Positions 2,353 through 54,000 of a DNA stretch of 64,000 nt are shown in pieces. The translations under genes and the position numbers were made by a program. Each line of letters begins with the position of its first letter. Position 1 is the first letter of the stretch. Where the stretch lies: contig OX597818.1 of the NCBI GenBank assembly GCA_951406725.2, positions 50,344,001 to 50,408,000 of the forward strand, in the 5' to 3' direction. Under the pieces are notes generated by a model. It was not told the origin of the DNA. It saw nothing but the letters and a program-made list of their open reading frames with translations, and searched no databases. The DNA comes from Octopus vulgaris (lineage: Eukaryota).

Positions 2353-2379
2353 CAACTCGATATCGTTATACGTAGCACT

Positions 2380-2990
2380 TATCGCCCACTAGATGCTCCA
2401 AATCATACGGACCTATTCGAAGACTGTCTTGGAAGAATAGAAATCTTAACCAATCTAGAACAACACAACAGTGTACTTCTTATGGGAGACTTCAGCCTGT
2501 CCAACGTATGATGAACTGAGGAACTTTTCCTCTCAGAAATGACACAATGTACTCAAAATGAGGTGGAAATCCCTGCTCAGCTACGCCAACATGTTATACA
2601 TAGAGCAAGTAATACTCTAACCAACCAGGCAGATAGTAGACTTGATCTCTGTTTCACAAACAATGTGGATTTCGTCCATAACGTGAAAGTTACACCGACG
2701 TTAGTCCCGGATGAAATGTAATAGTGCTGACCAAGTATAAACCAAAAAAATCCGAAGACGATCGGCTTATGGGGAGTACCTAAAAACTATCCAATTTCAA
2801 TCTTTATAAAGCAGACTGGAAATCAATTGAGAAAGAGATAATCAAATAAGATTGGCCTCAATGTCTCGGTACTTCTGACAACATGAAATTCAAAGAATTC
2901 GTGCTCATAATGCAAGATTGTCCCAGAGAGAAAGGCCACTACACATAGGAGCAAGATTCTCAGAGAGGTAACAGTTCTTATGAGATGGCG
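2380..2990 (+). mobile_element. Decayed CR1/L2-like LINE endonuclease fragment
   Basis: LLMGDF, LDLCFTNN and YKADW-like motifs of a non-LTR APE endonuclease, with stops; counterpart at ~36190-36790. Confidence 0.65.
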
Positions 2991-3421
2991 TACAAAGAAT
3001 TCATACTGCCCCATCAAAGAAGAGGGCGTAACACTGTCTATAGATGATGTCAACGTAAACTTAGCTGCTGGTCCAAAATAATTGTAATAGATTTCATCGT
3101 CGGAATCCATCTTTAATCTCCCTTCTGCCAACATTTCAAATATAAGATTTCTTTCCTGAAGACGGGGGCTCGTCTCGTCTGACGTTGGAATCAATTTCCT
3201 CCGTCTTCAGGGAAGAAATCTCACATTTTTAAAATCTAAAAACGAAAAGGAAGTGAGATAACTCCAATAATGGTATCACGTGATATATTATATTGAAAAC
3301 CATCAAGATATTGTTATCATCTATCCATAGGTTTTGGTTATCGAACAGTAACAGATTGTTACTAGTAACAGATTTTGATTAATTATTAAGTTATAAAACG
3401 TATCGTTATCACCAGTAGATT

Positions 3422-3625
3422 TTAGTCTTCAACGATATGATAAATGTTATTTCTGTTCCCATTGTTCACTTGGTGTTCTTCATTATAGTCCGTAAAAAAC
3501 AGTTTATTATATTGCGGAGAAGATTTTTCTTCTAGGACTTCATATGATTCCTCACTAATGTTTCTTGTGTTCGTTGTTGTAGTACTTTTATCCGATTCCT
3601 TACTATTGCAGAAGGAAGAAGATAT
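3422..3625 (-). CDS. Receptor gene A, terminal cytoplasmic exon with ITAM
   Basis: Acceptor ttttattttattttag, phase 0, 68 codons to TAA: ISSSFCNSKESDKSTTTTNTRNISEESYEVLEEKSSPQYNKLFFTDYNEEHQVNNGNRNNIYHIVED*. Confidence 0.85.
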   Translation of the reverse strand: MSSSFCNSKESDKSTTTTNTRNISEESYEVLEEKSSPQYNKLFFTDYNEEHQVNNGNRNNIYHIVED

Positions 3626-4223
3626 CTAAAATAAAATAAAAAGAAGATATATAGATCATGGTAGATGGCTGGATGGTAGAATCGGTCGCCTATTACTATT
3701 TTGTTACATTTCTTTACGTTTCGAGTTCAAAACCCACCTAAGTCTACATTTTATTTTATCTTTCCGATGTAACAAAACAGAGGCCAATTGTTTAAAGTGA
3801 AGCTCCGTCTGATTGTTATAGCAGCTAAATGTTCCTCAAACTACACCTTACCACGCACTATCTTCCAAAGGATAAGATGTCCTCTACCGGAACGCATTTG
3901 ATCATGGATTTTATGGGGTTCTTTCGTTTCTAATTCAATTTCTTGATGTTTAGCGTTATGTCTATCGCGAACGAAAAGCTGTGAACATCTCTTGATATAT
4001 ATATCAAGTAATAACGGGGAGAAAGAAGATGAGCTTCATTGAGAAGGTGAGATGTAATGTTGAAGATATCCAGTTCTTCATTTCGAATTCGAATTTTTTT
4101 CCTTTACCAATTTCACTGAAACCATTAACAGTTCTCTGAAACGCTTAACAGTCACAACTAGTCTGAATACATGCAACAGCGCAGCCTCTGCAAAAGGGGC
4201 GAAACAGTCATGCAGTGGTGATA

Positions 4224-4609
4224 GTTGAAGCATTCCGTCGGTTACGACGACGAGGGTTCCGGTTGATCCGAATCAACGGAACAGCCTGCTCGTGAAATTA
4301 ACGTGTAAGTGGCTGAGCACTCCACAGACACGTGTACCCTTAACGTAGTTCTCGGGGATATTCAGCGGGACACAGAGAGTGACAAGGCCGGCCCTTTGAA
4401 ATACAGGTACAGCAGAAACAGGAAGTAAGAGTGAGAGAAAGTTGTGGTGAAAGAGTACAGCAGGGATCACCACCATCCCCTGCCGGAGCCTCGTGGAGCT
4501 TTAGGTGTTTTCGCTCAATAAACACTCACAAAGCCCGGTCTGGGAATCGAAACCGCGATCCTATGACCGCGAGTCCGCTGCCCTAACCACTGGGCCATTG
4601 CGCCTCCAC
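4224..4609 (-). mobile_element. tRNA-headed SINE with target-site duplication, copy A only
   Basis: Head GTGGAGGCGCAATGGCCCAGTGGTTAGGGCAGCGGACTC with A/B boxes; flanked by gcagtggtgata duplication. Relatives at ~51855-52045 (+) and ~60820-61135 (+). Confidence 0.85.
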
Positions 4610-4779
4610 GCAGTGGTGATAACACAAAGAGGAACAGAGAAGCTCTTCTCGTTTCAGTCTAATTTTCCCTCACATGTCTTTGGTCGACTGGAGGCTATGG
4701 TAGAATAGACTTGTCCCAGGTGCCGTGCAATGAGATCGCCCATTATATTGTGAAAAAACAAAAAATAACAACATATATA

Positions 4780-5010
4780 TTTCTTTACTACCCACAAGGA
4801 GCTAAACACAGAGGGGACAAACAAGGACAGACAAACGGATTTAGTCGATTACATCGTCCCTAGTGCGTAACTGGTACTTAATTTATCGACCCCGAAAGGA
4901 TGAAAGGCAAAGTCGATCTCGGCGGAATTTGAACTCAGAACGTAACGGCAGACGAAATACGGCTACGCATTTCGCCCAGCGTGCTAACGTTTCTGCCAGC
5001 TCGCCGCCTT
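4780..5010 (-). mobile_element. SINE (second family)
   Basis: AGGCGGCGAGCTGGCAGAAACGTTAGC...GAGTTCAAATTCCGCCGAG; also at ~24785-25020 and ~53145-53380 (+). Confidence 0.8.
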
Positions 5011-5152
5011 GTAAAAAAAAACAACATATAAATTAGGCATGTATAATAAAAAGGGGAAAGAGGGAAAGGAGGAGAGGGGAGGAAAGAGAGAAGAAGAGAG
5101 AAGAAAAGAGAAGGGAGAAATAGAGACAAAGAAGAAGAGAGTAAGTACTAAC

Positions 5153-5246
5153 CATGGTTTCATCGATTTCTTCATACGTATGATTGTTCTCATTTACATA
5201 TTGAACATTAGAACTGGCGAATTTATCATCTGGAGTTGAGTTTCGT
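5153..5246 (-). CDS. Receptor gene A, cytoplasmic exon 1 (YVN, YEEI)
   Basis: Acceptor tatttcctccag, donor ATG|gttagt, 94 nt, phase 2-0 fits both neighbours. (K)RNSTPDDKFASSNVQYVNENNHTYEEIDETM. Confidence 0.85.
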
Positions 5247-5355
5247 CTGGAGGAAATACCAAATGAATATCATTAAGTGGTACGTGAACGGCAAGATCTG
5301 TAAGGCATCGGTTAAAATATTTTGAGGGATTTAGTGTACGTTTATTTACGTTCTG

Positions 5356-5789
5356 GGATCTTTTCGGTTTGAACGGCAGTTTTTTAAAATAATTTCCACG
5401 TAACTAAACACTTTTAAGCTTCGTATACTGGTAGAATGTGTTTATAAAACATCTTTTTCTCTTGGCTTTATTGAGAAAATTCTATAGTTTGTAAGATATT
5501 TGTTGTTTTTTTTTCTTCAATTTCTGCAATTTCAACCAATCACGGACGTCTATTGAGGTAAAAAAAACATTCTGTGCCGTATGACTATGTCCCTCGTTTA
5601 AGAAACAGATTGGGTTGATTTACATTTGTGAAGAAAAAAAAAGATACCCTTCCCCCACCCCTAACCCTAACCCTAACCCTAACCCTAAAACAGATTGAAA
5701 TGCAATAGATCGATACTAGGGTCATAATTATGGGTGACAATTTCATATGATACCGCTAGAAAAAACTTCCGTTCAAACAGAAAAGATCC
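5356..5789. mobile_element. MITE with 8-bp TSD and internal (CCCTAA)n, copy A only
   Basis: TIRs ggatcttttcggtttgaacgg / ccgttcaaacagaaaagatcc; TSD acgttctg (5348-5355, 5790-5797); empty site at ~38157. Confidence 0.85.
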
Positions 5790-6229
5790 ACGTTCTGATT
5801 TCAAATACCAACCAGGTCTTCTTCCAGAAAAATCAAAGAAATATTAAACCAGCATGAATGGGGATCCCAACGGGATTATTAGGCGAAAGGCTGACAACAT
5901 CTATGTTGATATGTATGTGGTATCCATAACGAAGACACTTACTTATGGCGAGTACAGTCCACTATAAATAGCTTTCATAGATTTGTAAAATTTGTTGTTG
6001 TAAAGAATAGGAGTACTGTAAATTAGCGAGTGTTTCCTTAATTCTTAATGTTTGGTTCGAGTGTTGTTTTTCTGGAGTAAACCGGCCGCACACTGATGAA
6101 GTAGTCAACTTCAAACAAGAAATACGGATAAGCGATGGATTTGTAGACTGAGTGAATAAACTGACCAACACAATTTAGTTACGTTTATCTACACTTTGAA
6201 TTCCAATCCCTCTGAGATACGGATTTCAA

Positions 6230-6470
6230 TGAGTCAGTTAAAGTTTAATCTACCTCTGATTTGGCGTTAAAATAAGACATGGATGACTAAGACCCTTTTC
6301 AAAGAGTGGTTTACGAAAGCTTTTTGTCCTGCCGTAGAAAGGTTCAGTGCCAGACACAACATTTCCAACAAAGCTTTGCTTATTTTAGACGATGCACCGA
6401 GCCATCTAGCAAACTTAGACGACATTTTGGATAATGTGAAAGTAGACTATATCCCCCAAAATACAACCAA
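6230..6470 (+). mobile_element. pogo/Tigger DDE transposase fragment
   Basis: WMTKTLFKEWF...KALLILDDAPSH, typical DDE_1 motif. Confidence 0.8.
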
Positions 6471-7046
6471 GGGGAAAAAGCTAAGTTTCTATACTGAGCT
6501 GTGCAATGGTGCATCATAAACAACAAACAACTTTGGATACGTTCTCCCACCCCACCCAAGCTGATTGTCGTGATAACGAAGTATAAGATATTAAATATTG
6601 TCCTTCATCCCCCTAGTAACGCTCATTCCACCCCCAACCCTCACACAGTAGCCAATATCTTTTGCGGTAAGAACATACTCTTACAATGTCGCAATTCTTA
6701 TTAATTCCCTAACTGGGTTCCTCTTGAAATGGTTTTTGGTTTCAATTACAATATTTGTACCGTTAATGTTTGGAAACTATTTTTATTACACATGAGAGTG
6801 AGAACACTTTGAGATATTTTTGGTATCTAACATATGTCAGATACTGCGAGCGCTGCTTCTGATTGATCAATCCATGGTGATGACCCGAGGTCACGGTGAC
6901 AGCGCTGCTTCTGATTGGTCAATCCATGGTGATGACCTGAGATCACGGTGACGGCACTACTTTTGTCATTCATAAGTTACAACTAAACGTGAAGAATTTA
7001 GTTATTGGGTTAATAAAATATGGTCGTTTATTCGTGTGTAATAAAT

Positions 7047-7192
7047 AAAATACTAAACTCATTCCCTATGGATACCGTATTTATTACAACGAGTGGCTTG
7101 TAAATGTATCTAACTCGCTTTCGCTCGTTAGATACGTTTACAAGCCACTCGTTGTAATAAATATGGTATCCATAGGGAATGAGTTTGGTATT
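7047..7192. repeat. Near-perfect palindrome (~65-bp arms)
   Basis: aatactaaactcattccctatggatacc...ggtatccatagggaatgagtttggtatt; preceded by a ~52-bp tandem duplicate at ~6850-6952. Confidence 0.85.
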
Positions 7193-7421
7193 CTCTATTT
7201 ATGTATAATGGCGATCGTTTTCCTTATCCTCTCTTGTTTTCTTGTGTTTCTTTGTCTTCCAAAAAGTGTCCGTAGGAACGCAATCTAACTTGATAATATA
7301 AAAATCAATTTTGCATTACAGAATTTGGTGTTACGGAAAGATTTTTAGGAACGCCCTACGTTCGTAAAGCGAAGGATTCTTGTAAAATAAACGGTAATAA
7401 CGAAACAGAAACTTTACTTAC

Positions 7422-7644
7422 TTTCGCCTAAATGATATCCATAAAATTAAGAAGAGAATAAATATGATCGCTAATACCAAAAAAGTGGCCAAAGAAGCAA
7501 CCAGTGTTATAGTGGTTTCTGGTGTTAGAGTAGTGGTTGTTGTTGACTCCTTTTCCGAATGGGTATCTAAAAATGTTTGTATTTTATCCCTGTTCCAAGA
7601 TTTAAAATCTTCGGGCCAGATCTCACGGCATTGAGTGTCATTAA
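7422..7644 (-). CDS. Receptor gene A, stalk + transmembrane exon
   Basis: Acceptor ttttttttctcacag, donor AA|gtaagt, phase 1-2. FNDTQCREIWPEDFKSWNRDKIQTFLDTHSEKESTTTTTLTPETTITLVASLATFLVLAIIFILFLILWISFRR: Thr-rich stalk, ~23-aa hydrophobic helix, basic stop-transfer. Confidence 0.9.
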
Positions 7645-7876
7645 CTGTGAGAAAAAAAAAATTAAATAGAGGCAAATTAGTATTCTTTTATTCGATATTT
7701 GTTCCAGTCATCTGACTGTGGCCATGCTGGAGCACCGCCTTTAGTCGAACAAATCGACCCCAGGACTTATTCTTTGTAAGCTTAATACTTATCCTATCGG
7801 TCTCTTTTGCCGAACCGCTAAGTTACGGGCCTGTAAACACAGTAACATCGGTTGTCAAGTGATGATGGGGGGACAT

Positions 7877-7948
<72 letters not shown>

Positions 7949-7949
7949 A

Positions 7950-8350
7950 TATCAAAATAAGCAACAAAGATATCCAGAGGTAATGCAGTACGATCGTTTC
8001 AAGCAACTCCATTTAATTGAACAATGCAATCATTACATCAATTTAAATGCAGAGCAATCTTCAGCTGCATAAAGACATAGAATTAAATAAAATTAAACAG
8101 ATGGACACATTAATATAACTTTAACTAAAACCTCTAAGAAGGTATGGAGATAGACAAAGAACATACTGTCTTCACTTCAGCTTCTAAGCTGTTTTAATCT
8201 GTTGTAATTTAATTTAATTCTATGTCTTTATGCAGCTGAAGATTACTCAGCATTTAAATTGATGTAATGATTGCATTGTTCAATTAAATAGAGTTGCTTG
8301 AAACGATCGTACTGCATTACCTCTGGATATCCTTGCTGCTTATTTTGATT
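7950..8350. mobile_element. Fold-back Penelope-type terminal fragment with hammerhead motifs on both arms
   Basis: Arms ~7950-8100 and ~8200-8350; counterpart at ~39443-39830. Confidence 0.75.
8230..8317 (+). ncRNA. Hammerhead ribozyme-like motif (mirror copy on - strand at 7983-8070)
   Basis: atgcag-CTGAAGA-...-GAAA-cgatcg-TA-ctgcat: stem I, conserved core, palindromic minimal stem III. Confidence 0.75.
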
Positions 8351-8433
8351 TTAATAATCTTATTTTGAAATTGTATGAATAATACCGTACTAAATTCTGG
8401 TGCCTCAACTTAAATACCAAATTCATCTGAATC

Positions 8434-8529
<96 letters not shown>

Positions 8530-8736
8530 CACACACACACACTCACACACACATATATATGACAGGCTTCTTTCAAGTTCTGTCTACCAAATCCACTCAC
8601 AAGGCTTTGGTTGGCCCGAGGCTATAGTAGAAGACACTTGCCCAAGGTGCCACGCAGTGGAACTGAAACCGGAACCATATGGTTAGTAAGCAAGCTACTT
8701 ACCACACAGCCATGCCGGTTTATGGAATATATAGAA

Positions 8737-8935
8737 CAGTGGTTTTCAACCAGGGTTCCACCAGTACAGTTCAGGGGATCCGCAAGAAGCTACAAAACTG
8801 CTAAAGTCGGCAGTAATTTTTAATTCTCCTGTGCAGATATGTGTTCATAAGACTTAAATTATTGCACAGGGGTTCCTCGAGCCAGTGGAATGTTTCTTTG
8901 GGGTTCCGCTCCAGCAAAAAGTTTGAAAAGCACTG
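8737..8935. mobile_element. hAT (Charlie-like) MITE
   Basis: TIRs cagtggttttcaa / ttgaaaagcactg, 8-bp TSD atatagaa; counterpart at 40164-40365. Confidence 0.85.
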
Positions 8936-9940
8936 ATATAGAAGTATGCTTTATTAAAAAATATCAGAATAATGCACCCTGTCACCAATGTAGATATAGC
9001 TGTGGTAATATAATATATAGCAATAGCAACTTGTTAGATAGATACAGGTAGGTGAACACATAGAAAGGTGTGCTAGGAATCTTAATCCTAATTTCCTAAT
9101 TTTCCCCCTTTATCAATGTTCACAGAACACCTCAGTACAACAAAGAATGAATAAAGAGGCAACTTTCATCAACAATGTTTCTTCCACAACTTAATGTGAA
9201 CACATGACATAATACAGAACACTACTAACCTTTCAATTAATACCACTAACCCCCATACATCCCATACACCATTCACATTACAGATCTATATCTACCCTAA
9301 CTGCACCAAATCCAGAACTTACCTCCCTTACACATAATCGTTTTACTCAGGGACTAGTAGACCAGGCACCGTTCATTAATCGGTGTGCACTCAAAGTAAT
9401 GATTAGTAAATTCACGAAACCGGTATGCTTTTGAATCTCTTTAACAATTCACAATAATGACTTTTATTACTTTTATTTCTACCTGTTATAAGACTATAAT
9501 ATTATAGTCTTATCACATTAGTTTTATTCCTTACCTGTGATAAAACTATAATATTATTTCACTTTTATTCTTTCACTTTTAATTCTAATGTGATAACACT
9601 AAGACCATCGTATTTTACACATTCACTGTTCAGTTACGAGTTAATAATTGTCGCAGCAGTTGCAAGGTATTTACAGTTAAATGTTAACCCTTAAATTAAC
9701 ATTATATATATTAAGCAGCATATTAAATAACATAAGTAATTTATACCGGCAGTAAAAGGGATATTCTTATCCCTTAGATGGTTATTCCTACCACTAACTC
9801 TACTAACGTTGTATACATACATACATACATACATACATACATACATACATACATACATACATACATACATACATACATACATACCTACATACATACATAC
9901 ATATACATACATATACATACATACACACATACATACATAC

Positions 9941-9983
<43 letters not shown>

Positions 9984-10087
9984 CATATATAATATGAGGG
10001 AATATTATTCCAAACTTACAGGGAAAATTTCAATTTAGAAATACTAAATCAAATTTCACAAAATATAATATATATATACATACAAAT

Positions 10088-10155
<68 letters not shown>

Positions 10156-14383: not shown

Positions 14384-14572
14384 ATGGAATATTGATGCCG
14401 CATCGAATCCAAGGTTTATCCTGGCATTGTCCAACATCAAGCACACAGGTTCTATTTAGCGCAATTGTACCAGCTCCACAATGCATATGATTACCGTGGT
14501 TATAATATTTCGTGCAAATGCATGGATCAATTTGGAAAGGAAGGCTCTTTTTCGAATTACAAATGGTAAAAT
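14384..14572 (-). CDS. Receptor gene A, Cys-rich ectodomain exon (chitin-binding type-2/peritrophin-A-like)
   Basis: Acceptor ttttattttttcag, donor T|gtaagt, 189 nt symmetric phase 1-1, open frame xFTICNSKKSLPFQIDPCICTKYYNHGNHMHCGAGTIALNRTCVLDVGQCQDKPWIRCGINIP with 7 Cys. DPxxCxKYY...CxxGT resembles CBM14 (resemblance only). Confidence 0.85.
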
Positions 14573-17479: not shown

Positions 17480-19545
17480 CAGTAGTGTAAAATCACTACT
17501 GCAGCGATCTCCCAGGAAGATGCAGAACACTTGGTGGGACGATCTTGCTTGTGATGTTCAGGCTGCTGCTGATGCAAATGACAGCAAGAGGCTTTACCAT
17601 CTTATGAAGCAAGTTTATGGGCCCAAGAGCCCCGCATCAGCTCCTTTGCTTTGCAAGGAGTCTTCTATTCTAGTTATTAAATCAACAGAAATCACAAGTC
17701 GCTCGATTGAACACTTCTCCGAATTCCTAAACCATGAGTTAGTTGTGGACGAAACAGTGAGAGATACTATGCAACAAAGACCTATCATTGGCTCCTTAAA
17801 TTCCACGCCCTCAAAAGTTGAGGTAAACTGAATGTTGGTAGGGTATCTGGATGTGATGGAATTTGTGCTGGGCTTTTTCAATTTGGTGGGGATTACAACA
17901 TACAGTCCCTTCATGAACTTATTAGTGTAGTCTAGAGGGATGGTGCAATGCCTAAGGACTGGAAGGGTGCAATTATTCTTCTTCTCTATAAAGGAAAGGG
18001 AGCCAGAATAATGTGTGGTAACTACAGAGCTATTGCTCTACTATCAGTTGCTGGCAAGGTTTTGGCAAATATTCTTCTTACTCGCCTGAATGAGTGTCTT
18101 GTAAATGGCCTATCTGAATCTCAATGTGGCTTCTGATCTGGTAGAGGGACAATGGATATGATCTTCACAGCAAGACAGATGTAGGAGAGGTGCCAAGAGT
18201 AGAATATGGATCCTGTCCAGGTATTCATTGATTTAACCAACATGTTTGATATTGTGAATAGGGCGTTGCTATGGAAAGTACTTGGCAAACTTGGATGTCT
18301 GGATTACTTTGTATCTATAACTAAATCATTTCATGATGAGACGGAGGCTTGTGTCAATGTTGGTGGTGGCACGGCGGGACCCATTCCTATAGAGAATAGT
18401 GTCAAGCAGGGTGACATTCTTGCCCCAACTCTCTTTTCTTTGTACTTTGCTGCTGCTTTTACTCATGCTTTTGCTAAGGTTTGCTCTCTGGGAATATATG
18501 TCAGGTATCGATCTTCTGGCCGCTTCTTTTATTTGCGCTGATTTGCTGCCAATTCAAAAGTTTTCCAGTCTCTTATTCGCGACCCCCTTTATGCAGATGA
18601 CTGACTTAGTCACTCATTCAGTGGATGACTTGCAAATACTTATGAATCGTATTTCTGCTTCTTGTAAAGTATTTGGACTCAGCATTAATCTAGACAAGCC
18701 TGCACCAGAAAATTCATATGTGGAAACAGCTATCTTGGTTGGGGGAACAATTCTGAAAGTGGTAGACAGGTCATCTACCTGGACAGCACACTCAGCCGTT
18801 CTTGATCCCTGGCTGATGAAATATCTTTCAGGCCGCAGAGAGCAACTGATTTCTTCCGGTCTCTTCAGTCTCGTGTCTGGTCCCAGCATGGCATCACAAA
18901 GCAAACAAAAATTGCTGTGTACCGTGCATGTGTACTGACATCGCTCCGTCATTTATGTAAAACATGGACCTTTTACAACTGTCATGTAAGGGTCCTTGAA
19001 CGCTTTCATCAGAGATGTCTCAGACACATTCTCAATGTTGGCTTGACCTTAAAACCTCCAGACACAGGTCCTGAGAACAGCTGATATCTTGAGTGCACAA
19101 ACATCGGTTACGTTGGACTTATTAGAATGAAGGATAGAAGGATTCCTAAGTAGATGCTATATGGGGAACTTGTGAATGGAAGGAGGCCGCGGCAGAAACC
19201 AAGGCTGCGATTTAAGGACTGCGTCCTCATTAAAGGTCTGCGATATGCAAGAGACTGACTGGGAGAGCAATGCCTGTCATCGCCACAGAGGGAGGAAGCA
19301 GGTTAAGGAGGGGATCGACACTTTGAGAGAGCACGTATCAATGAGAACTTGCGAGCACGAAAGCGCACGGCTGTATAGTGAATGGGGAAAGCTTGGTCTG
19401 CAATGTTTGCAGTCGTGTATGCTTGTCAAGAGCAGGGTTCATTAGCCACCAACGGAGCCACAAATGCAAAATATTAGTCCTAGAGCGTACAATGTTCCTG
19501 AAGTTCAGCAATGGTCTTCCTCGGTCACGAGTGGACAGACATTAT
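17480..19545 (+). mobile_element. Decayed RTE-clade LINE, copy A only
   Basis: YKGKG...CGNYRAIALLS, ESQCGF, FIDL, KQGDILAPTLF, YADD and a C-terminal CxxC..HxxxH; many frameshifts. Confidence 0.9.
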
Positions 19546-23388: not shown

Positions 23389-24575
23389 ACCGTATAGAGG
23401 GACCAGAAGTGAAACAATTGGGGCATCGATAGACTTTCATTATTCATATGGTGGGTGGAGTGCAGATTTTGGTAAATCTCAGAAATTATATCACTTCAAG
23501 GTACAACGAAGAAAGGCTCTGATTTGAAAGTCAGTGCTCAACTGTGTTCAAGGGAGTCAGACTTGTTATAGAAATCTCATTAACTCTGCTTTTGAGCTTT
23601 TTAAACTGCTTGATATAGCAGCAAAATATTTTCACCATTTATACTCAGCCATCCATTTAAGCAACCACGAGGACAGCCGTTCAAGAATTTGGACCTGGAT
23701 ATCTCCATTTCCAGGAACTTCGAAGATCACATCCCAGTGGTGTCGGGCGTCAACGAAGAGCCCTCGACTACAAGACGACCAAAGTTTTTTTTTCTAAGGT
23801 CTTGGGGAAGTTTTTTTTTCTAAGGTCTTGGGTTTCCCGCCCCTAAGCCCTAGACCATCAACTAATAACCCTTACCCGTCTTGTTGCTTAATAACAACAA
23901 CAACAGCAACAGCAGAAGAAGAAGAAAAATAAGAAGAAGAAGAAGAAGAAGAGGCGGAGGAGGAAAAAAGAATAATAATAATAATAAGAACAACAACAAC
24001 AACAACAAAAACAACAACAACAAAGACTCTTTCAAGGGAAGAATGAGGTGGGAAAGTGCTTGACAATGCTAACGAATTAAAGATCGATCAGAAATTGTAC
24101 GGAATCGAACAGGAAATTTTACGGAATCGAAGAGGAAAAAAAGCCCTTAAAAAATTAGAAAATTATATTTACCTTTTCCCATTTTCAGTTCAATAAGTAG
24201 AAAAAGAAAGAAAAAGAAAATTAAGAAATAGTTTCAAATTGATGGTTCCTTGGTTGAACGGGATTAAATAGAAATAAAATGAAAAGTTAGCCAAGATATT
24301 AACTGTAAGTGTTTTAAGCCTCTTCTGTGGTTGAACAACCTCCACAAACAGAAACAAACTAAACAATGAAAGAATGAGGAGAGAAATAATTAATACAGCA
24401 AAAATTCCCACCGGATTCTCTCTCTCTCTCTCTCTTTGTTTCCCTCTCTCACTGTTTCTCTCTATCTATCTGTCTCGCTCTCCCCCTCTCTCTGTTTTTT
24501 GTTTCTAACCACTCCCTTCTGATCATTTACTCGCGTGGTTCCTAGTTTTTTTCCTGACGTTCCCCTTCTATTTAC

Positions 24576-27525: not shown

Positions 27526-28918
27526 CCACACAAATACAGAAAGATTGTTTTTTCCTGCTAAGTAGATTTATATGTTTAATATATCATGCTAGTGTGCATG
27601 TGCGTGTGTGTAGTGGCAACAAGCAGTAACTGGTTCGCCTTGAGAGTTTGGTTGCTGTTGTTGTTCTTCTTCTTCTTCTTTAGCCTCCAAGCAACCCTGA
27701 TGGAGCAGGCTTAATTTACTTTTCATACTTAAGATCAAGCATATTTATGATTATTCTTAAGATGCTATTTATGATTCCATTTGTGACTTAATTCCCCTGC
27801 AGGTGACATATTTAAGACTACAATATTATTAATGTGTCATTTTCAAAAACAATAAATTGTGAGTATAGGTAGATTTGGTTGCTATTTCTGGAAGTTCAAC
27901 TGACTGCATACCAGACCGTGAGGCTTGGAGCAGTTCTTCTATCTAGACAGCCTCTGTCAAAACCAGTCCAACCCATGCCAACATGGAAAACAGACTTTAA
28001 ATGATGATGATGATGATGATTATGATGAAGATGATAAAGTAAAGAGAAAGAGATGCAAAACAAAAAACTGTTAAGGGTAGAGTTGTGAGAAGGAACTAAA
28101 ATCCATGGTTGACTTATAGTGACGGACAACCAACATCAGTGTCAGGAGTTCAAATGCTACTACGGTAGCATTTGTATTTCATTTCACAGCATGGCATGAC
28201 CACTTCTACTCCTACTCTGAGTATAACTAACTTGATACACTCTCTCTCTCTCTCTCCATAGTAACCCCCTCCCCTCTCCCCCGTAACACCCTTTCATTCA
28301 CCCCCAACCCATCCGTCTCTCTCATTTGTTGAATGCCATCAAACACTATCGACAGATCTACCCCACCCACAAAGGTCTATGTGACCCAAGGCTGCAATAT
28401 AATTTCCACATTTCGTAAAGATCACAGTACAATAAATTATGGGATCTTAAAAGAAATTATCTTTGGGAGGTACCCCCGTTGTTTTAGTTATTGGGCTGTG
28501 GCCATGCTGGTGCACCACCTGGAAAAGTTTGATCAAACAAATCAACAATTTATTCTTGTTTGTTTTTTTTTCATGGTTTTTTTACCTTAGCACATGGCCA
28601 CACCTGCACTTATCACAGATTAAGGTGCAGTAAATGAATGATAAGAAGGAGCAGCAGCAGCAGCAGCAGCATGCACTGATGTAGGCAAGAGTGAATGTTC
28701 AGAAGTAGGTCGTGGGTTGATGTGCTATGGCAGCAATTGAATACTGAGAAATGGTTTGTATGAACAGCATTCACACACCCACACACATATGGAACACACC
28801 CATCTTTACGCATTTCAGCTTATTTATGGACCACAGGAAGTGCCTTTGTTGTAATATCTATACACACCATCACACACACACACACAGTTATGTATGCATA
28901 TTCAGAACACTTAAATAT

Positions 28919-31636
<2,718 letters not shown>

Positions 31637-31842
31637 GTATGTATATATTTAAGTGTATATGTGTGACTTTGTTTCTGTGTTTCACCCTCATCACTGCTTC
31701 ATAACTATTGTTCGTTTTTTCACTTTTTACTATTTTCTATATATTCAACCACGTTCTTTCACAAACCAACTTTCTTATCTATCTCTCTATATATATATAT
31801 ACATATATACGATTGATTTCTTTAAGTTTCTGTCTACGAAAT

Positions 31843-36156: not shown

Positions 36157-37322
36157 CTGTCTGACAACTCGATATCGTTATATGTAGCACTTATCGTCCA
36201 TTAGATGCTCCAAATCATACGGACCTATTCGAAGACTGTATTGGAAGAATAGAAATCTTAACTAATCTAGAACAACACAACAGTGTACTTCTTATGGGAG
36301 ACTTCAGCCTGTCCAACGTATGATGACCTGAGGAACTTTTCCTCTCAGAAATGACACAATGTACTCAAAATCAGGTGGAAATCCCTGCTCAGCCTCGCCA
36401 ACATAGAGCAAGTAATACTCTAACCAACCAGGCAGATAGTAGACTTGATCTCTGTTTCACAAACAATATGGATTTCGTCCATAACGTGAAAGTTACACCG
36501 ACGCTAGTCCCGGATGAAATGTAATAGTGCTGACCAAGTATAAACCAAAAAAATCCGAAGACGATCGGCTTATGGGGAGTACCTAAAAACTATCCAATTT
36601 CAATCTTTATAAAGCAGACTGGAAATCAATTGAGAAAGAGATAATCAAATAAGATTGGCCTCAATGTCTCGGTACTTCTGACAACATGAAATTCAAAGAA
36701 TTCGTGCTCATAATGCAAGATTGTCCCAGAGACAAAGGCCACTACACATAGGAGCAAGATTCTCAGAGAGGTAACAGTTCTTATGAGATGGCGTACAAAG
36801 AATTCATACTGCCCCATCAAAGAAGAGGGCGTAACACTGTCTATAGATGATGTCAACGTAAACTTAGCTGCTGGTCCAAAATAATTGTAATAGATTTCAT
36901 CGTCGGAATCTATCTTTAATCTCCCTTCTGCCAACATTTCAAATATAAGATTTCTTTCCTGAAGATCGGGGCTCGTCTCATCTGACGTTGGAATCAATTT
37001 CCTCCGTCTTCTGGGAAGAAATCTCACATTTTTAAAATCTAAAAACAAAAAGGAAGTGAGATAACTCCAATAATGGTATCACGTGATATATTATATTGAA
37101 AACCATCAAGACATTGTTATCATCTATCCATAGGTTTTATTTATCGAACAGTAACAGATTGTTACTTGTAACAGATTTTGATTAATTATTAAGTTATAAA
37201 ACGTATCGTTATCACCAGTAAATTTTATTTTTCAACGACGTGATTAAGAGTTATTTCTGTTCTCTGTTCACTTGGTCCAGTTCGTTAAACGCCAGTTTAT
37301 TATATCTTGGAGAAGACTCTTC

Positions 37323-37421
37323 TTATAGGTTTTCATATGTTTTCTCACCGATGTTTCTTGGGTTTGTTGTTGTTGAAGTGTTTTTATTCGCTATACTACT
37401 ATTGCAGAAGGAAGTAGTTGT
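37323..37421 (-). CDS. Receptor gene B, truncated terminal exon ending YENL*
   Basis: Acceptor tttatttcattacag; TTTSFCNSSIANKNTSTTTNPRNIGEKTYENL*, followed past the stop by EESSPRYNKL (relic second ITAM half). Confidence 0.8.
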   Translation of the reverse strand, partial: TTTSFCNSSIANKNTSTTTNPRNIGEKTYENL

Positions 37422-37961
37422 CTGTAATGAAATAAAAATAAAATATATAAACCCGTGTGAATGAGTGGATGGTAGAATCGGTCACCTTATAGTATTTTGT
37501 TATATCTCCTTACGTTTTGAGTTCAAATCCCACCTAGGTCTACATTGTATTTTATTTTTTCGATGTAATAAAACAGGGGCCAATTGTTTAAAGTGAAGTT
37601 CCGTCTGATCATTTTGGTAACTAAACGTTCTTCAAACTACACCCTACCACCTGAAACAGATCATAGAGTCTTACACGCACTATCTTTCAAAAGATATGAT
37701 GTTCTCTACTGAAATGCATTTGTTTATAGATTTTCTCCAGTTGGACAGACCTGGAACAGCAACAACAACAATAAATTCAATACCACCACTGGCAATCTCA
37801 CACAAACCTCACCAAACGAAATATAAAACAGGCCAATTGTTTAAAGTGAAGTTCCGTCTGGTCATTTTGGTAACTAAACGTTCTTCAAACTAACCCCTGC
37901 CACCTGAAACAGATAATAGAGTCTTACACACATTAGAGAGAGGAAGAGAGTAAGTACTAAC

Positions 37962-38055
37962 CGTATTTTCATAGATTTCTTCATTCGGATGATTATTCTC
38001 ATTTACATTTTGAACATTTGAACTGGCGAATTTATCATCTGGAGTTGAGTTTCGT
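37962..38055 (-). CDS. Receptor gene B, cytoplasmic exon 1
   Basis: 94 nt, phase 2-0, RNSTPDDKFASSNVQNVNENNHPNEEIYENT; both A tyrosines lost, new IYEN gained. Confidence 0.8.
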
Positions 38056-38910
38056 CTGGAGGAAATACCAAATGAATATCATTAAGTGGTACGTGAACGG
38101 CAAGATCTGTAAGGCATCGGTTAACATATTTTGAGGGATTTAGGTACGTTCATTTACGTTTAGATTCCAAACACCACCCAGTTCTTCTTTCAGAAAAATA
38201 TTTTAAATATTAAACCAGTGTGAATGAGGATCCCAACGGGATTATTAGGCGAAAGGCTGGCAACACCTATGTTGTTATGTGTGTGGTATTTATAACGAAA
38301 ACACTTACTTCTGGCGGTTACAGTCCACTATAAATAGCTTTCATGGATCTTTTAAAATTGGTTGTTGTAGAGTAGAGGTACTGTAAATTAACGAGTGTTT
38401 TGTTAACTCATAATGCTTGTGTCTCTGGAGTAAACCAACAGCAAACTGCTGGAGTAGACAACTTCAAACAAGAATTACGGATAAGAGATAGATTTTTTGA
38501 CTGAACGAATAAAGCAACACAATTTAGTTACGTTTCTTTACGCTTTGTATTCAAATCTCTCCGAGATATGGTTTGTATTTATTTTGTTCTGGGGACTCTA
38601 AATCTTACTCTACTTAAACAACTGTATCCACTTCTAATCCAGCCCTAAAATTTCTACCCTGTGTCCCTGTTAGAAATTATCTTTATTAATACTGTTATTT
38701 TCTTTTTATTTTGTACTCGCCCTTTTCAAGCCTAGCCAGGCTGATGGGCCCGGTTTCCCGCTTTCTATGGCGTATGTGTGTCCCCCCCCCCCTCGCCCCG
38801 CTGGACGGGACGCCAGTCCATCGCAGCGTTGCTCAAGAAACAGGAAGAAAGACTGAGAGAAAGTTTGGGCGAAAGAGTACAACAGGGGTCGGAACAGAAA
38901 CTTTACTTAC

Positions 38911-39157
38911 TTTCGTCTAAATGATATCCATAAAATTAAGAAGAGAATAAATATGATCGCTAATACCAAAAAAGTGGCCAAAGAAGCAACCAGTGTTAGA
39001 GCAGTGGTTTCTGGTGTTAGAGTAGTGGTTTCTGGTGTTAGAGTAGTGGTTGTTGTTGACTCCTTTTCCGAATGGGTATCTAAAAATGTTTGTATTTTAT
39101 CCCTGTTCCAAGATTTAAAATCTTCGGGCCAGATTTTACGGCATTGAGTGTAATTAA
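38911..39157 (-). CDS. Receptor gene B, stalk + transmembrane exon
   Basis: 247 nt = A exon + in-frame 24 nt (extra TLTPETT-type unit). Splice sites intact; TM sequence matches A. Confidence 0.85.
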
Positions 39158-45923: not shown

Positions 45924-46113
45924 ATGGAATATTGATGCCGCATCGAATCCAAGGTTTATCCTGGCATTGTCCAACATCAAGCACACAGGTTCTATTTAGC
46001 GCAACTGTACCAGCTCCACAATGCATATGATTACCGTGGTTATAATATTTCGTGCACTTGCATGGATCAATTTGGAAACGAAGGCTCTTTTTCGCATTAC
46101 AAATTGTTAAAAT
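45924..46113 (-). CDS. Receptor gene B, Cys-rich ectodomain exon (190 nt; +1 nt relative to A)
   Basis: Same splice sites as A. Reads ILTICNAKKSLRFQIDPCKCTKYYNHGNHMHCGAGTVALNRTC... only if entered in phase 0; in phase 1 it hits TAA after a few codons. Confidence 0.7.
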
Positions 46114-51000: not shown

Positions 51001-54000
51001 GCGGAGGAGGAAAAAGAATAATAATAATAATAAGAACAACAACAACAACAACAAAAACAACAACAACAACAAAGGTGGGAAAGTGCTTGACAATGCTAAC
51101 GAATTAAAGATCGATCAGAAATTTTACGGAATCGAACAGGTAAAAAGCCCTTAAAAAATTAGAAAATTATATTTACCGTTTCCCATTTTCAGTTCAATAA
51201 GTAGAAAAAGAAAGAAAAAGAAAATTAAGAAATAGTTTCAAATTGATGGTTCCTTGGTTGAACGGGATTAAATAGAAATAAAATGAAAAGTTAGCCAAGA
51301 TATTAACTGTAAGTGTTTTAAGCCTCTTCTGTGGTTGAACAACCTCCACAAACAGAAACAAACTAAACAATGAAAGAATGAGGAGAGAAATAATTAATAC
51401 AGCAAAAATTCCCACCGGATTCTCTCTCTCTCTCTCTCTTTGTTTCCCTCTCTCACTGTTTCTCTCTATCTATCTGTCTCGCTCTCCCCCTCTCTCTGTT
51501 TTTTGTTTCTAACCACTCCCTTCTGATCATTTACTCACGAGTTTCCTAGTATTTTTCCTGACATTCCCCTCTATTTACACTTCCTATGAAACGAGCAAAT
51601 GACAATATAACAGAACCAGACGATAAACAAAACACTTCGCTTAACATCCAGATAGTACAGTTTATAAGAGGCGCTCATTCAGTCATGCGCAAACATGCAT
51701 TTCATACGCAATAACAAAACTGAACGCCATGAATCACCTTGGACGACCATTACACAATACTCCTTCCATAATCCACGACAAACATCACTAATTCCACCTT
51801 TCATTTCCCCCTCCTCCATCATCATAATCATCATCATCGATAACAGCAGCATCAGTGGAGGCGCAATGGCCCCGTGGTTAGGGCAGCGGACTCGCGGTCG
51901 TAAGAACGCGGTTTCGATTCCCAGACCGGGCATTGTGAGTGTTTATTGAGCAAAAAACACCTAAGCTCCACGAGGCTCCGGCGGGGAGGGTGGTGAACCT
52001 CACTGTACTCTTTCACCACAACTTTCTCTCACTTTTTCTTCCTACTTCTGCCACAAAGCAGAGGAACCATGGTGTAACCCACTATGGTGTGGTAAACTTT
52101 CAGACCCTAGTCTGATGGTTCAGCTCTCCACCCGTTAAAAGCCACCTTTTAGGGAATGAGGATAACAACGTAGCTTTCGCGCCCGTGCAACCGCCAGTCT
52201 ATCACGTGTGGTGGGTGGATCTTCAAGTTGCCACACGCATTCTTAGTAGCTTAGAGTAGGCTCGAATTAGAGATTATTCTTTGTGGCTAATGGCGTGAGT
52301 CCTGATTGGAAGAAGACAGCAGCATCACCACCATAATCACTAGCAGCACTAGCCGTTCAAGAATTTGGACCTGGAGATCTCCGTTTCCAGCGACTTCGAG
52401 GGCCACCTCCCAGTGGTATCAGGCGTCAACGAAGAGCCCTCGACTACGACCAAAGTTTTTTTTTTCCAAGGTCTGGGGTCTCCCGCCCCTAAACCCTAGA
52501 CCATCACCTTAATCACCCTTACCCGTCTTGTTGCTTAACAACAACAACAACAACCAACAGCACTAGCGCCACCACCGCCACCGTCGTCCAACTTTTCTAC
52601 CATCGTCAAAAGAAACAAAATCAGCAGCAGCAGCCCACCAACCCCCTCCGCCACCGCCACCACTACCACCACAACCAGCAACAACAACAATACCATGCCT
52701 GTCTCTCCTAAACATGGAAAATAATTTTATAAAATCCAATTTGTAGTTTTTGCATTCATTCAATATAGCTTACGCAAGCCTTGCGTGCTTTGCATTCAGA
52801 CAGGAAACGCTTTCAAAGCGTTATTTAGGGGGTTCACTCGACAGCGCAGCCAAATGGTATCAAGTCGGCCTATATGCAGTGACCCCTAATAGAGGGTAAG
52901 ATGGATTGTATCGAGACGACAGTTTAGAATTGTCGCATCATAATCCCGTTCATGCTCAAGCCACGTTCGGAAAGAACCTCATAGCCACAAAATATTACCA
53001 CAGCTACTAATATTATCAACGTAGACTTCGCTGATGCTCCATTCTGTTTAAGCAATTCAGGCAAACCATTGCATAAATGTGGTGAGAAACCGAGGTGTAT
53101 AAAGAAACACTTGTATTCGCAAATGTTACGGTAAGAATTTTAAAGCGGCGAGTTGGTTGAATAGTTAGCACACCGGGCAAAACACTCAGCGGTATTTCGT
53201 CTGCCGTTACGTTCTGAGTTCAAATTCCGCCGAGGTCGACTTTGCCTTTCATCTTTTCGGGGTCGATTAAATAAGTACCAGTTACGCACTGGGGTCAATA
53301 TAATCGACTTAATCCGTTTGTCTGTCCTTGTTTGTCCTCTCTGTGTTTAGCCCCTTGTGGGTAGTAAAGAAATAGGTATTTCGTCTGCCTTAATGATTTG
53401 AGTTCAAATTCTGCCCATGTCGACTTTACCTTTCACCCTCCAGAGGTCGACCAAGCAAGTACCAGCTGAATACTACGGTCCAATGCGATCGACTTAGCCC
53501 CCACAACCTGCTGGTCTTGTGCTAAAATTTGAAGGAGGCAGCGAGCTAGTAGAATCGTTACTGCACCGAACAAATTACTACCGGCATTTTGTCCATCTTT
53601 ACGTTCTGGGTTCCAATTCCACCGAGGTCGGCTAAGCCTTTGATCCTTTTGGTGTCGATAAAATAGGTACCAGTTAAATACTGAGGTTGATGTAATCGAA
53701 TTAAGTTCCTGCTCCACCCGTTCGAAATTAATGGCCCCGTCCCAAAATTTGAAAACAATATTAGGATAAGAATTGATAACCTGCCATTCTTTAAACAAAG
53801 CGTTGATAAGGTGGACTATTACAGCAACAAAGCCTTAGCTGACTGCAGCTTTGCGGAGAAAAATTCTTACGCACCCAACTTAAATCAACTACCGCCCAGG
53901 AAGGGACTCACAAAAATGTTCTGCTTCGCATCCGCTTTTTTCCCTAAGCGAGAATTCCCGAAGGATGCAGACCACAAGAAAATGATAAAAGTTCTGACAG

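Follow-up and report, generated by a model that had tools for sequence, protein, structure and literature searches.

A well-supported module swap in an undescribed, hypervariable cluster of putative ITAM receptor genes in octopus

Vertebrate paired receptors (KIR, Siglec, SIRP and CEACAM) have ectodomains that are kept similar by gene conversion, while their cytoplasmic tails differ. A comparable arrangement is described here for a 64,000-nucleotide stretch of the 2.8-Gb genome of Octopus vulgaris (assembly GCA_951406725.2, contig OX597818.1, positions 50,344,001 to 50,408,000; henceforth the window), which carries two copies, A and B, of a tandem unit. The first-pass annotation of this DNA had seen in it the signature of paired receptors, and as an analogy this holds: the octopus genes share with the vertebrate receptors (PMC13358205) linkage, near-identical ectodomains, gene conversion, different tails and the tyrosine-based activation motif of immunoreceptors (ITAM) in one member, the last as a motif only. 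In contrast, they are octopus genes with neither immunoglobulin (Ig) nor C-type lectin domain, with no inhibitory counterpart of the ITAM (ITIM) and no charged residue in the transmembrane (TM) segment, and both tails are homologous and of ITAM type, one of them truncated, that of B having likely been captured from a third gene. Since ITIM and the typical domains are missing, we do not file the cluster as a member of the paired receptors.

Similar systems have been reported from invertebrates. The Alr cluster of Hydractinia (10.1101/2022.03.04.482883) likewise encodes single-pass proteins with ITAM tails, which diverge more than the ectodomains, and Syk/Shark and SHP are present in that genome. 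Alr proteins have Ig and fibronectin type III domains and some of them ITIMs, and allorecognition by Alr1/2 has been demonstrated, whereas the octopus cluster consists of four genes with a small cysteine-rich domain and a predicted receptor role. The FcoR proteins of Botryllus (10.1101/2024.10.16.618699) are polymorphic membrane proteins whose tyrosine motifs vary by allele and locus and include hemITAM-like forms, but they are type I proteins of 520-610 amino acids with signal peptides and canonical ITIMs. Among molluscs, the Biomphalaria GRC and PTC2 clusters (PMC7494358) also encode hyperdiverse single-pass proteins with deep haplotypes; in contrast to the octopus genes they are associated with parasite resistance, the word 'tyrosine' is absent from the main text of the paper, and profile searches found no sequence relation between the two. 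In the oyster pair CgIgR-CgSyk (PMC6994640), recruitment of Syk by an ITAM receptor has been reported for a mollusc, which is a precedent for the pathway proposed below, but CgIgR has five Ig domains and the abstract mentions neither a paired copy nor tail exchange. A literature search, whose range left aside supplements and most subscription papers, returned no description of the octopus genes or of a cephalopod receptor of this kind. The genes carry only 'uncharacterised' annotation.

The A and B units were delimited by self-comparison of the window, where they lie 32 kb apart on the minus strand. Genome searches with the TM exon and with the last exon each yielded four loci: A, B, C and D. 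In window coordinates C occupies approximately 82-106 kb on the plus strand and D approximately 124-155 kb on the minus strand, the two being situated 18-90 kb outside the window. The Cys exon of A as a genome query matched A and B only. Each of the four genes encodes a single-pass protein with a cysteine-rich ectodomain and a tyrosine-rich tail. The gene has five coding exons with GT-AG ends, namely a 10-base start exon, a Cys-rich exon, a stalk and TM exon and two tail exons, located as follows:

1-26059, minus strand: copy A of the tandem unit; A/B homology runs about 600 bases further left of the window
24173-24182, minus strand: first coding exon of A (Met-Gly-Lys), with a stop in frame 18 codons upstream
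14384-14572, minus strand: Cys-rich ectodomain exon of A, likely a degenerate CBM14 domain (a lead)
7422-7644, minus strand: stalk and TM exon of A; the TM segment is uncharged and followed by a basic stretch
5153-5246, minus strand: tail exon 1 of A, with tyrosines in YVNE and YEEI; the A-type splice joint occurs in two RNA-like runs
3422-3625, minus strand: tail exon 2 of A to the stop codon, from the exon translation
3091-3421, minus strand: 3' untranslated stretch common to the four paralogs (94-97%); further downstream the match is between A and B only
31788-54523, minus strand: copy B of the tandem unit, from self-comparison with A
51177-51186, minus strand: first coding exon of B (Met-Gly-Asn); one RNA-like run shows in-frame splicing to the Cys exon
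45924-46113, minus strand: Cys exon of B, with a frameshift in the assembly due to one additional base near 46107
38911-39157, minus strand: stalk and TM exon of B, A-type, with a Thr/Pro repeat 24 bases longer
37962-38055, minus strand: tail exon 1 of B, with NEEI-YENT in place of YEEI, from comparison of the tails
37323-37421, minus strand: tail exon 2 of B, cut short by a premature TAA that follows YENL, so that the second half of the ITAM is left beyond the stop

For a quantitative comparison, A (1-26059) and B (32174-54523) were aligned with tandem repeats masked. Outside positions 3419-7402 mismatches occur in 294 of 11,889 aligned columns (2.5%), and in the immediate flanks in 22/1,038 (2372-3418) and 41/2,123 (7403-10136), whereas inside this interval the copies differ at 153 of 1,064 columns (14.4%). 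B could be aligned to these 1,064 of the 3,984 bases of A, and the remaining three-quarters of the island include A's own inserts. The edges are sharp: the left one coincides with the stop codon of A (TAA, 3422-3424) and the right one lies 18 bases into the intron past the TM-exon donor (7421). The Cys exons, which the first-pass annotation had called near-identical and which we take to be 14384-14572 and 45924-46113, differ at 7 of 188 bases and 4 of 60 residues, and the 5' part of the TM exon at 3 of 166 bases. The earlier observation of near-identical copies enclosing a much more diverged, partly unalignable island with a different transposable-element content, running from the stop codon to the TM-exon donor, was thus partly confirmed: identity along the duplicate is not uniform, and the island of A holds interspersed repeats specific to A and an insert resembling a miniature inverted-repeat transposable element (MITE). 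The island is, however, interrupted: the segment 5211-5352, which covers the acceptor and the opening 35 bases of tail exon 1, has mismatches in 2 of 141 columns and is 97-100% identical in the four paralogs. Nor are the two tails unrelated modules; they are homologous, with identical exon structure and coding DNA that is 80-93% identical. The features of the island, none of them assigned to a strand, are:

3419-7402: interval of A that diverges from B (the old tail of A itself), from the alignment
5211-5352: near-identical patch in the four paralogs, abutting A's MITE-like insert
5353-5789: MITE-like element inserted in A only and carrying terminal inverted repeats; a copy (94%) occurs 98 kb to the left of the window
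4227-4611 and 4778-5010: A-specific interspersed repeats in intron 4, from comparison of the paralogs
6226-7400: A-only part of intron 3, without a second copy in the 264 kb examined

The private stretch of intron 3 also holds a 160-base imperfect palindrome (7041-7202) and a 52-base tandem duplication (6849-6952).

The origin of the island became apparent from four-way alignment of the paralogs, in which ectodomain and stalk separate A and B from C and D, and the tail separates A from B, C and D. In the tail introns the identity of B is 96-98% with C and D but 83-85% with A. At the informative sites B goes with A at 37 of the first 38, then with C/D, then with A again; the 196 informative sites form 21 runs against a permutation mean of 81.9, and none of 100,000 permutations gave as low a number. 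The switch falls in TM-coding sequence that is nearly identical in the four genes, and the return to A-like sequence is blurred (approximately 37,275 to 36,957) because the first 330 bases of the 3' untranslated region are common to all four. The limits, again without strand, are:

38916-38972: interval in the TM-coding sequence in which B switches from A-like to C/D-like, from informative sites
37221-38890: tail region of B, C/D type, from the four-way comparison

Taking these data together, B is very probably a chimera with A-type ectodomain and flanks and a C/D-type tail. Gene conversion, to which both the runs test and the grouping of the Cys exons by species point, would be its cause. The distance of A from C/D is about the same in the ectodomain introns (78-86% identity) and in the tail introns (82-85%), which indicates that A is whole and B the mosaic, so that B would be the recipient of the tail and C and D its donors. 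Intron 4 of B is itself composite, bases 1-139 being C-type including C's deletion junction and bases 138-540 D-type (403 bases), which points to more than one copying event. In the 5' end of the unit (approximately 19.6-26 kb) A, B and C are 96-98% alike, suggesting that exchange is general in the cluster. Separate trees of tail and stalk (10 protein rows) conflict as expected from a swap, with B joining C/D in the tail (99/98) and A in the stalk. Of the two histories that the first-pass annotation had offered, these results favour capture of a tail from an older paralog, with donors that lie outside the window.

As the refuting case the first-pass annotation had named mis-joined haplotypes. 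No contig spans the TM switch of B, and the extra base at 46107 is in no other run, as one would expect if A and B were mis-joined haplotypes or B an assembly chimera. However, the annotated models of O. sinensis reproduce the chimera independently: models X1/X2 have the tail of A (0 of 98 residues different), and models X3/X4 combine an A-type ectodomain with the tail of B (1 of 63 different); the models of LOC115211618 contain two distinct Cys and stalk exons, and the contig that carries both forms also has C-like and D-like genes at loci of their own. In addition, A and B differ by many kb-sized inserts, and one DNA run contains three Cys-exon types, more than one diploid locus can hold if the sample is one animal. 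We therefore regard a mis-join as very improbable. Contig depths in run X1 (A tail 60, shared flank 121, beta-tail piece 165) fit 1:2:3 loci; being no copy numbers, they were not used.

If alpha denotes the lineage of A and beta that of C/D, A and B could alternatively be an ancient pair in which the tails diverged in place under repeated homogenisation of ectodomain and flanks, the tail of B matching C/D because C and D descend from B or exchange with it. The Cys exons do group by species rather than by locus, and the near-identical tracts end at the edges of A's tyrosine-coding sequence, at its stop codon and just before its first private tyrosine; locally, then, the homogenisation proposed in the first-pass annotation stands. 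In O. bimaculoides, models X1 and X2 have identical 88 N-terminal residues (ectodomain and TM) followed by an alpha tail and a beta-like tail, respectively, so that the pairing may be old. In contrast, homogenisation is not needed for the 26-kb block: A and B are evenly 2.5% apart over its length, intergenic flanks included, with a single island, and one duplication plus one capture is the simpler account; nor does in-place divergence of the tails agree with an intron 4 of B composed of C and D forms. The old pair is distinctly less plausible than the captured tail, and we rate it as unlikely.

The tails were then compared for tyrosine motifs using the ITAM consensus of the Hydractinia study, Yxx[L/I]x6-9Yxx[L/I] (10.1101/2022.03.04.482883). 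One further feature is needed:

3500-3544, minus strand: ITAM of A, YEVL-x7-YNKL, with acidic residues ahead of it; position obtained by counting along the translated exon

A full ITAM is present in A, C and D and in four of six sister-species tails, and is missing in B, in O. sinensis model X3 and in O. bimaculoides model X1. Of 20,000 shuffled versions of each tail, 0.13-0.43% show the pattern (for A, C and D, which are not independent). It was disabled in three ways: B stops after the first ITAM half (37323-37325) in this assembly, the O. sinensis B tail loses the second half through a frameshift, and in the alpha tail of O. bimaculoides (model X1) the first YxxL is broken by a Leu-to-Gln change. 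A one-base deletion at 37296, matching the O. sinensis frameshift, was found in contigs of runs X8 and X5. One tyrosine of B has moved, and both of its tyrosines read Y-E-N. YxN binds SH2 domains of the Grb2 type. The hemITAM pattern defined for FcoR, [E/D][E/D][E/D]xYxxL (10.1101/2024.10.16.618699), does not match B (G-E-K-T-Y-E-N-L), whose YENL lacks the acidic triplet. As to possible partners, the genome contains SH2 exons with best PDB matches to SYK and SHP2 (two of 36 SH2 matches were checked); the SYK-like match consists of one 41-residue SH2 exon (E 1.5e-10, next family 1.3e-7). Three similar SH2 exons, presumably Csk-like, lie within 82 kb at C3:157.80-157.89 Mb.

Both lesions of the B tail could also mean that B is a mechanically made chimera, now decaying, and that only A, C and D matter as receptors. 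Such decay would agree with the frameshift near 46107 and the stop at 37323-37325 in the assembly, with the other frameshift in the O. sinensis tail, and with conversion tracts that are scattered over the cluster, non-coding DNA included. However, the early frameshift is missing from contigs of runs X2, X6 and X8, and in X8 the B-type first exons are spliced in frame; the extra base at 46107 is thus either private to the assembly or an error. Moreover, the changed tyrosine contexts of B are alike in both species (1 of 63 tail residues different), and both lesions spare the first YxxL and remove the second. We consider a decaying B improbable, though a serious competitor of a functioning B.

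The ectodomain was found to be hypervariable among samples, in the following stretch:

45959-46058, minus strand: hypervariable stretch of the B Cys exon among samples, equivalent to approximately 14419-14518 in A

Across the Cys exon (60 residues) the difference between paralogs is 4 in this genome and 9 in O. sinensis, whereas the species differ by 18-20; orthologous tails differ between species by 0-1 residues. Relative to the B exon, run X8 (RNA-like) contains types with 2/165 and 23/161 base differences, and run X2 (DNA) three types with 6/160, 23/150 and 25/140. Run X6, under another organism label, has the divergent kind of Cys exon and run X10 a further type (20/143), while contigs on the introns beside the exon differ at 0-2 sites. 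In the divergent type of X8, 19 of the 22 listed changes (of 23) are at codon positions 1-2 (p = 0.035). These counts are to be read with the reservation that contigs lose rare variants, that the runs are possibly pools and that their labels are possibly wrong. Probably, the cluster consists of polymorphic, immune receptors that shuffle ectodomains and tails by gene conversion. Fast amino-acid-changing evolution of a binding domain is also typical of gamete-recognition proteins, and the same history could have produced receptors for non-immune recognition (gamete, self-tissue or chemical sensing). The ITAM tails, and deep exon types common to two organism labels as in immune and allorecognition clusters, speak against a non-immune role, which appears quite improbable.

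With respect to topology, no signal peptide was found in any of seven proteins, each of which has a single hydrophobic segment, none of them N-terminal, and a stop in frame lies shortly upstream of the ATG in all four copies. Since a signal peptide is missing and there is one TM segment, followed by basic residues, a type III (signal-anchor, N-out) membrane protein is predicted. A hydrophobic stretch upstream of the ATG was rejected as signal peptide on account of the in-frame stop and the lack of a Met, and a candidate exon near 9320-9430, missing from the gene models, was rejected because it has stops in three frames by eye. As for transcripts, both tail introns are skipped in contigs of all three RNA-like runs (compared with B at 80% likeness), and the A-type tail splice joint occurs in two of the three. 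In a contig of run X5 the Cys exon is joined straight to tail exon 1 (window position 38055), so that the TM exon is skipped; this form would shift the frame because the phases differ. The Thr/Pro stalk repeat (38993-39051 and 7490-7545) varies in length between copies and species models, which would alter the height of the ectodomain.

The identity of the ectodomain was approached by profile searches, which found relatives in Octopus and Argonauta only; a fish match (P0016) reflected TM and tail composition and was dropped. No Pfam family, and thus neither Ig nor C-type lectin, scored above cut-off in 13 scans. The best profile score for CBM_14 (Pfam PF01607, chitin-binding type 2 or peritrophin-A) was 13.7 bits against a cut-off of 22.1 (E 0.071), on the distant paralog P0015; the locus is not among the 130 CBM14 matches listed for the genome. 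HHalign against 25 octopus CBM14 domains gave 90.6% over 27 columns, and compared with shuffles three of nine ectodomains did better (at most 5 of 1,000), whereas six, including that of A, did not. The start of the domain, D-P-x-x-C-x-x-Y-Y...C, aligns with CBM_14, but the score stays below the Pfam cut-off throughout, A's own exon is no better than shuffles, and A and B have lost two cysteines that O. bimaculoides retains. ESM features led to CBM_14 clusters at 0.79, which is a lead only; the ESM Atlas returned nothing for A's ectodomain, and a PDB profile search matched TM helices alone (E 3-9). A structure predicted from a six-sequence alignment was unusable (mean predicted local distance difference test score, pLDDT, 42.3, with the TM helix alone confident). 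On balance we lean towards descent of the ectodomain from CBM14; chitin binding would be conjectural.

Some further observations concern the surroundings of these genes. C and D are in opposite orientation and share about 97% identity across more than 12 kb, with ectodomain exons that are strongly different from those of A and B; the tail of C terminates early. The spacer between A and B contains an inverted repeat of about 550 bases (28907-29453 and 31082-31656, 89-96%), and an A-only insert in intron 1 (approximately 17500-19500) looks by eye like a decayed reverse-transcriptase fragment of a long interspersed nuclear element. On the window's contig a distant paralog (C5:128,349,909-128,361,846) has the layout of the cluster genes and a fuller cysteine set; it is kept in O. 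bimaculoides and Argonauta (P0015, P0017), and its tail, although it has tyrosines, is quite different.

In the explanation that we favour, to which we assign a probability of roughly 0.55, A and B are linked recognition receptors with near-identical ectodomains and different tails, that of B captured, which would signal through a full and a half ITAM, respectively. This value is lower than our confidence in the chimera because the receptor function lowers the total. An old duplication would have given rise to two genes about 15-20% apart in introns, alpha (A) and beta (C/D), and the whole alpha unit would then have been duplicated into A and B. Beta sequence, copied from at least one C-like and at least one D-like template, would have replaced approximately 1.7 kb in B between the TM-coding sequence and the region of the stop codon, and B would afterwards have altered its tyrosine motifs and lost the second YxxL. 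The proteins are predicted to insert with the N-terminus out without a signal peptide, and the variable Cys domain may bind a variable foreign ligand. Phosphorylated tail tyrosines would dock SH2 proteins; the full ITAM of A, C and D may recruit a Syk-type kinase, and the half-ITAM tail of B could answer similar ligands with a signal that is weaker or of another kind.

Several points weigh against this explanation. History and function of the cluster are read from sequence, and ligand, cell type and signalling are predictions; the sister-species evidence consists of annotated proteins rather than DNA, the RNA-like status of the runs, which carry no labels for tissue, is a guess, and the ectodomain of B is not phased to its tail. 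No ITIM ([ILVS]xYxx[LVI]) or switch motif (ITSM, TxYxx[VI]) was found in any of ten tails, and none of the TM segments is charged, so that this is no classical activating/inhibitory pair. The ITAM is not kept everywhere, as the alpha tail of O. bimaculoides shows. Between the B and C tails 17 of 286 coding bases differ against 30 of 1,094 intron bases (p = 0.016), with 10 non-synonymous or stop and 2 synonymous codon changes; this excess counts in favour as a diversifying signal, but it fits re-wiring or relaxation and does not separate relaxation from selection, and the early frameshift and premature stop of B in the assembly also fit decay. Finally, the island includes unconverted introns, which may have been shielded by inserted elements and not by selection. 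A bolder version, in which octopuses independently built paired receptors with a hypervariable chitin-binding-like ectodomain that is under balancing selection across species and held similar in both partners by conversion, and in which a full and a disabled ITAM, through repeated tail swaps, time and again yield an active receptor and an attenuated or re-wired partner, is tentative and in our judgement doubtful.

That a module was swapped in this undescribed, hypervariable cluster of putative ITAM receptors is nevertheless well supported. As a candidate for polymorphic recognition the octopus cluster is small and testable, with four genes and with a donor and a switch point that are clear; ectodomain and tail recombine in it as modules, three of the four combinations being present. 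It would extend the convergent ITAM clusters of Hydractinia, Botryllus and oyster to cephalopods, with another ectodomain and another topology. The locus would be a strong candidate for disease resistance or self-recognition in a farmed animal, provided that the deep exon types segregate across species.

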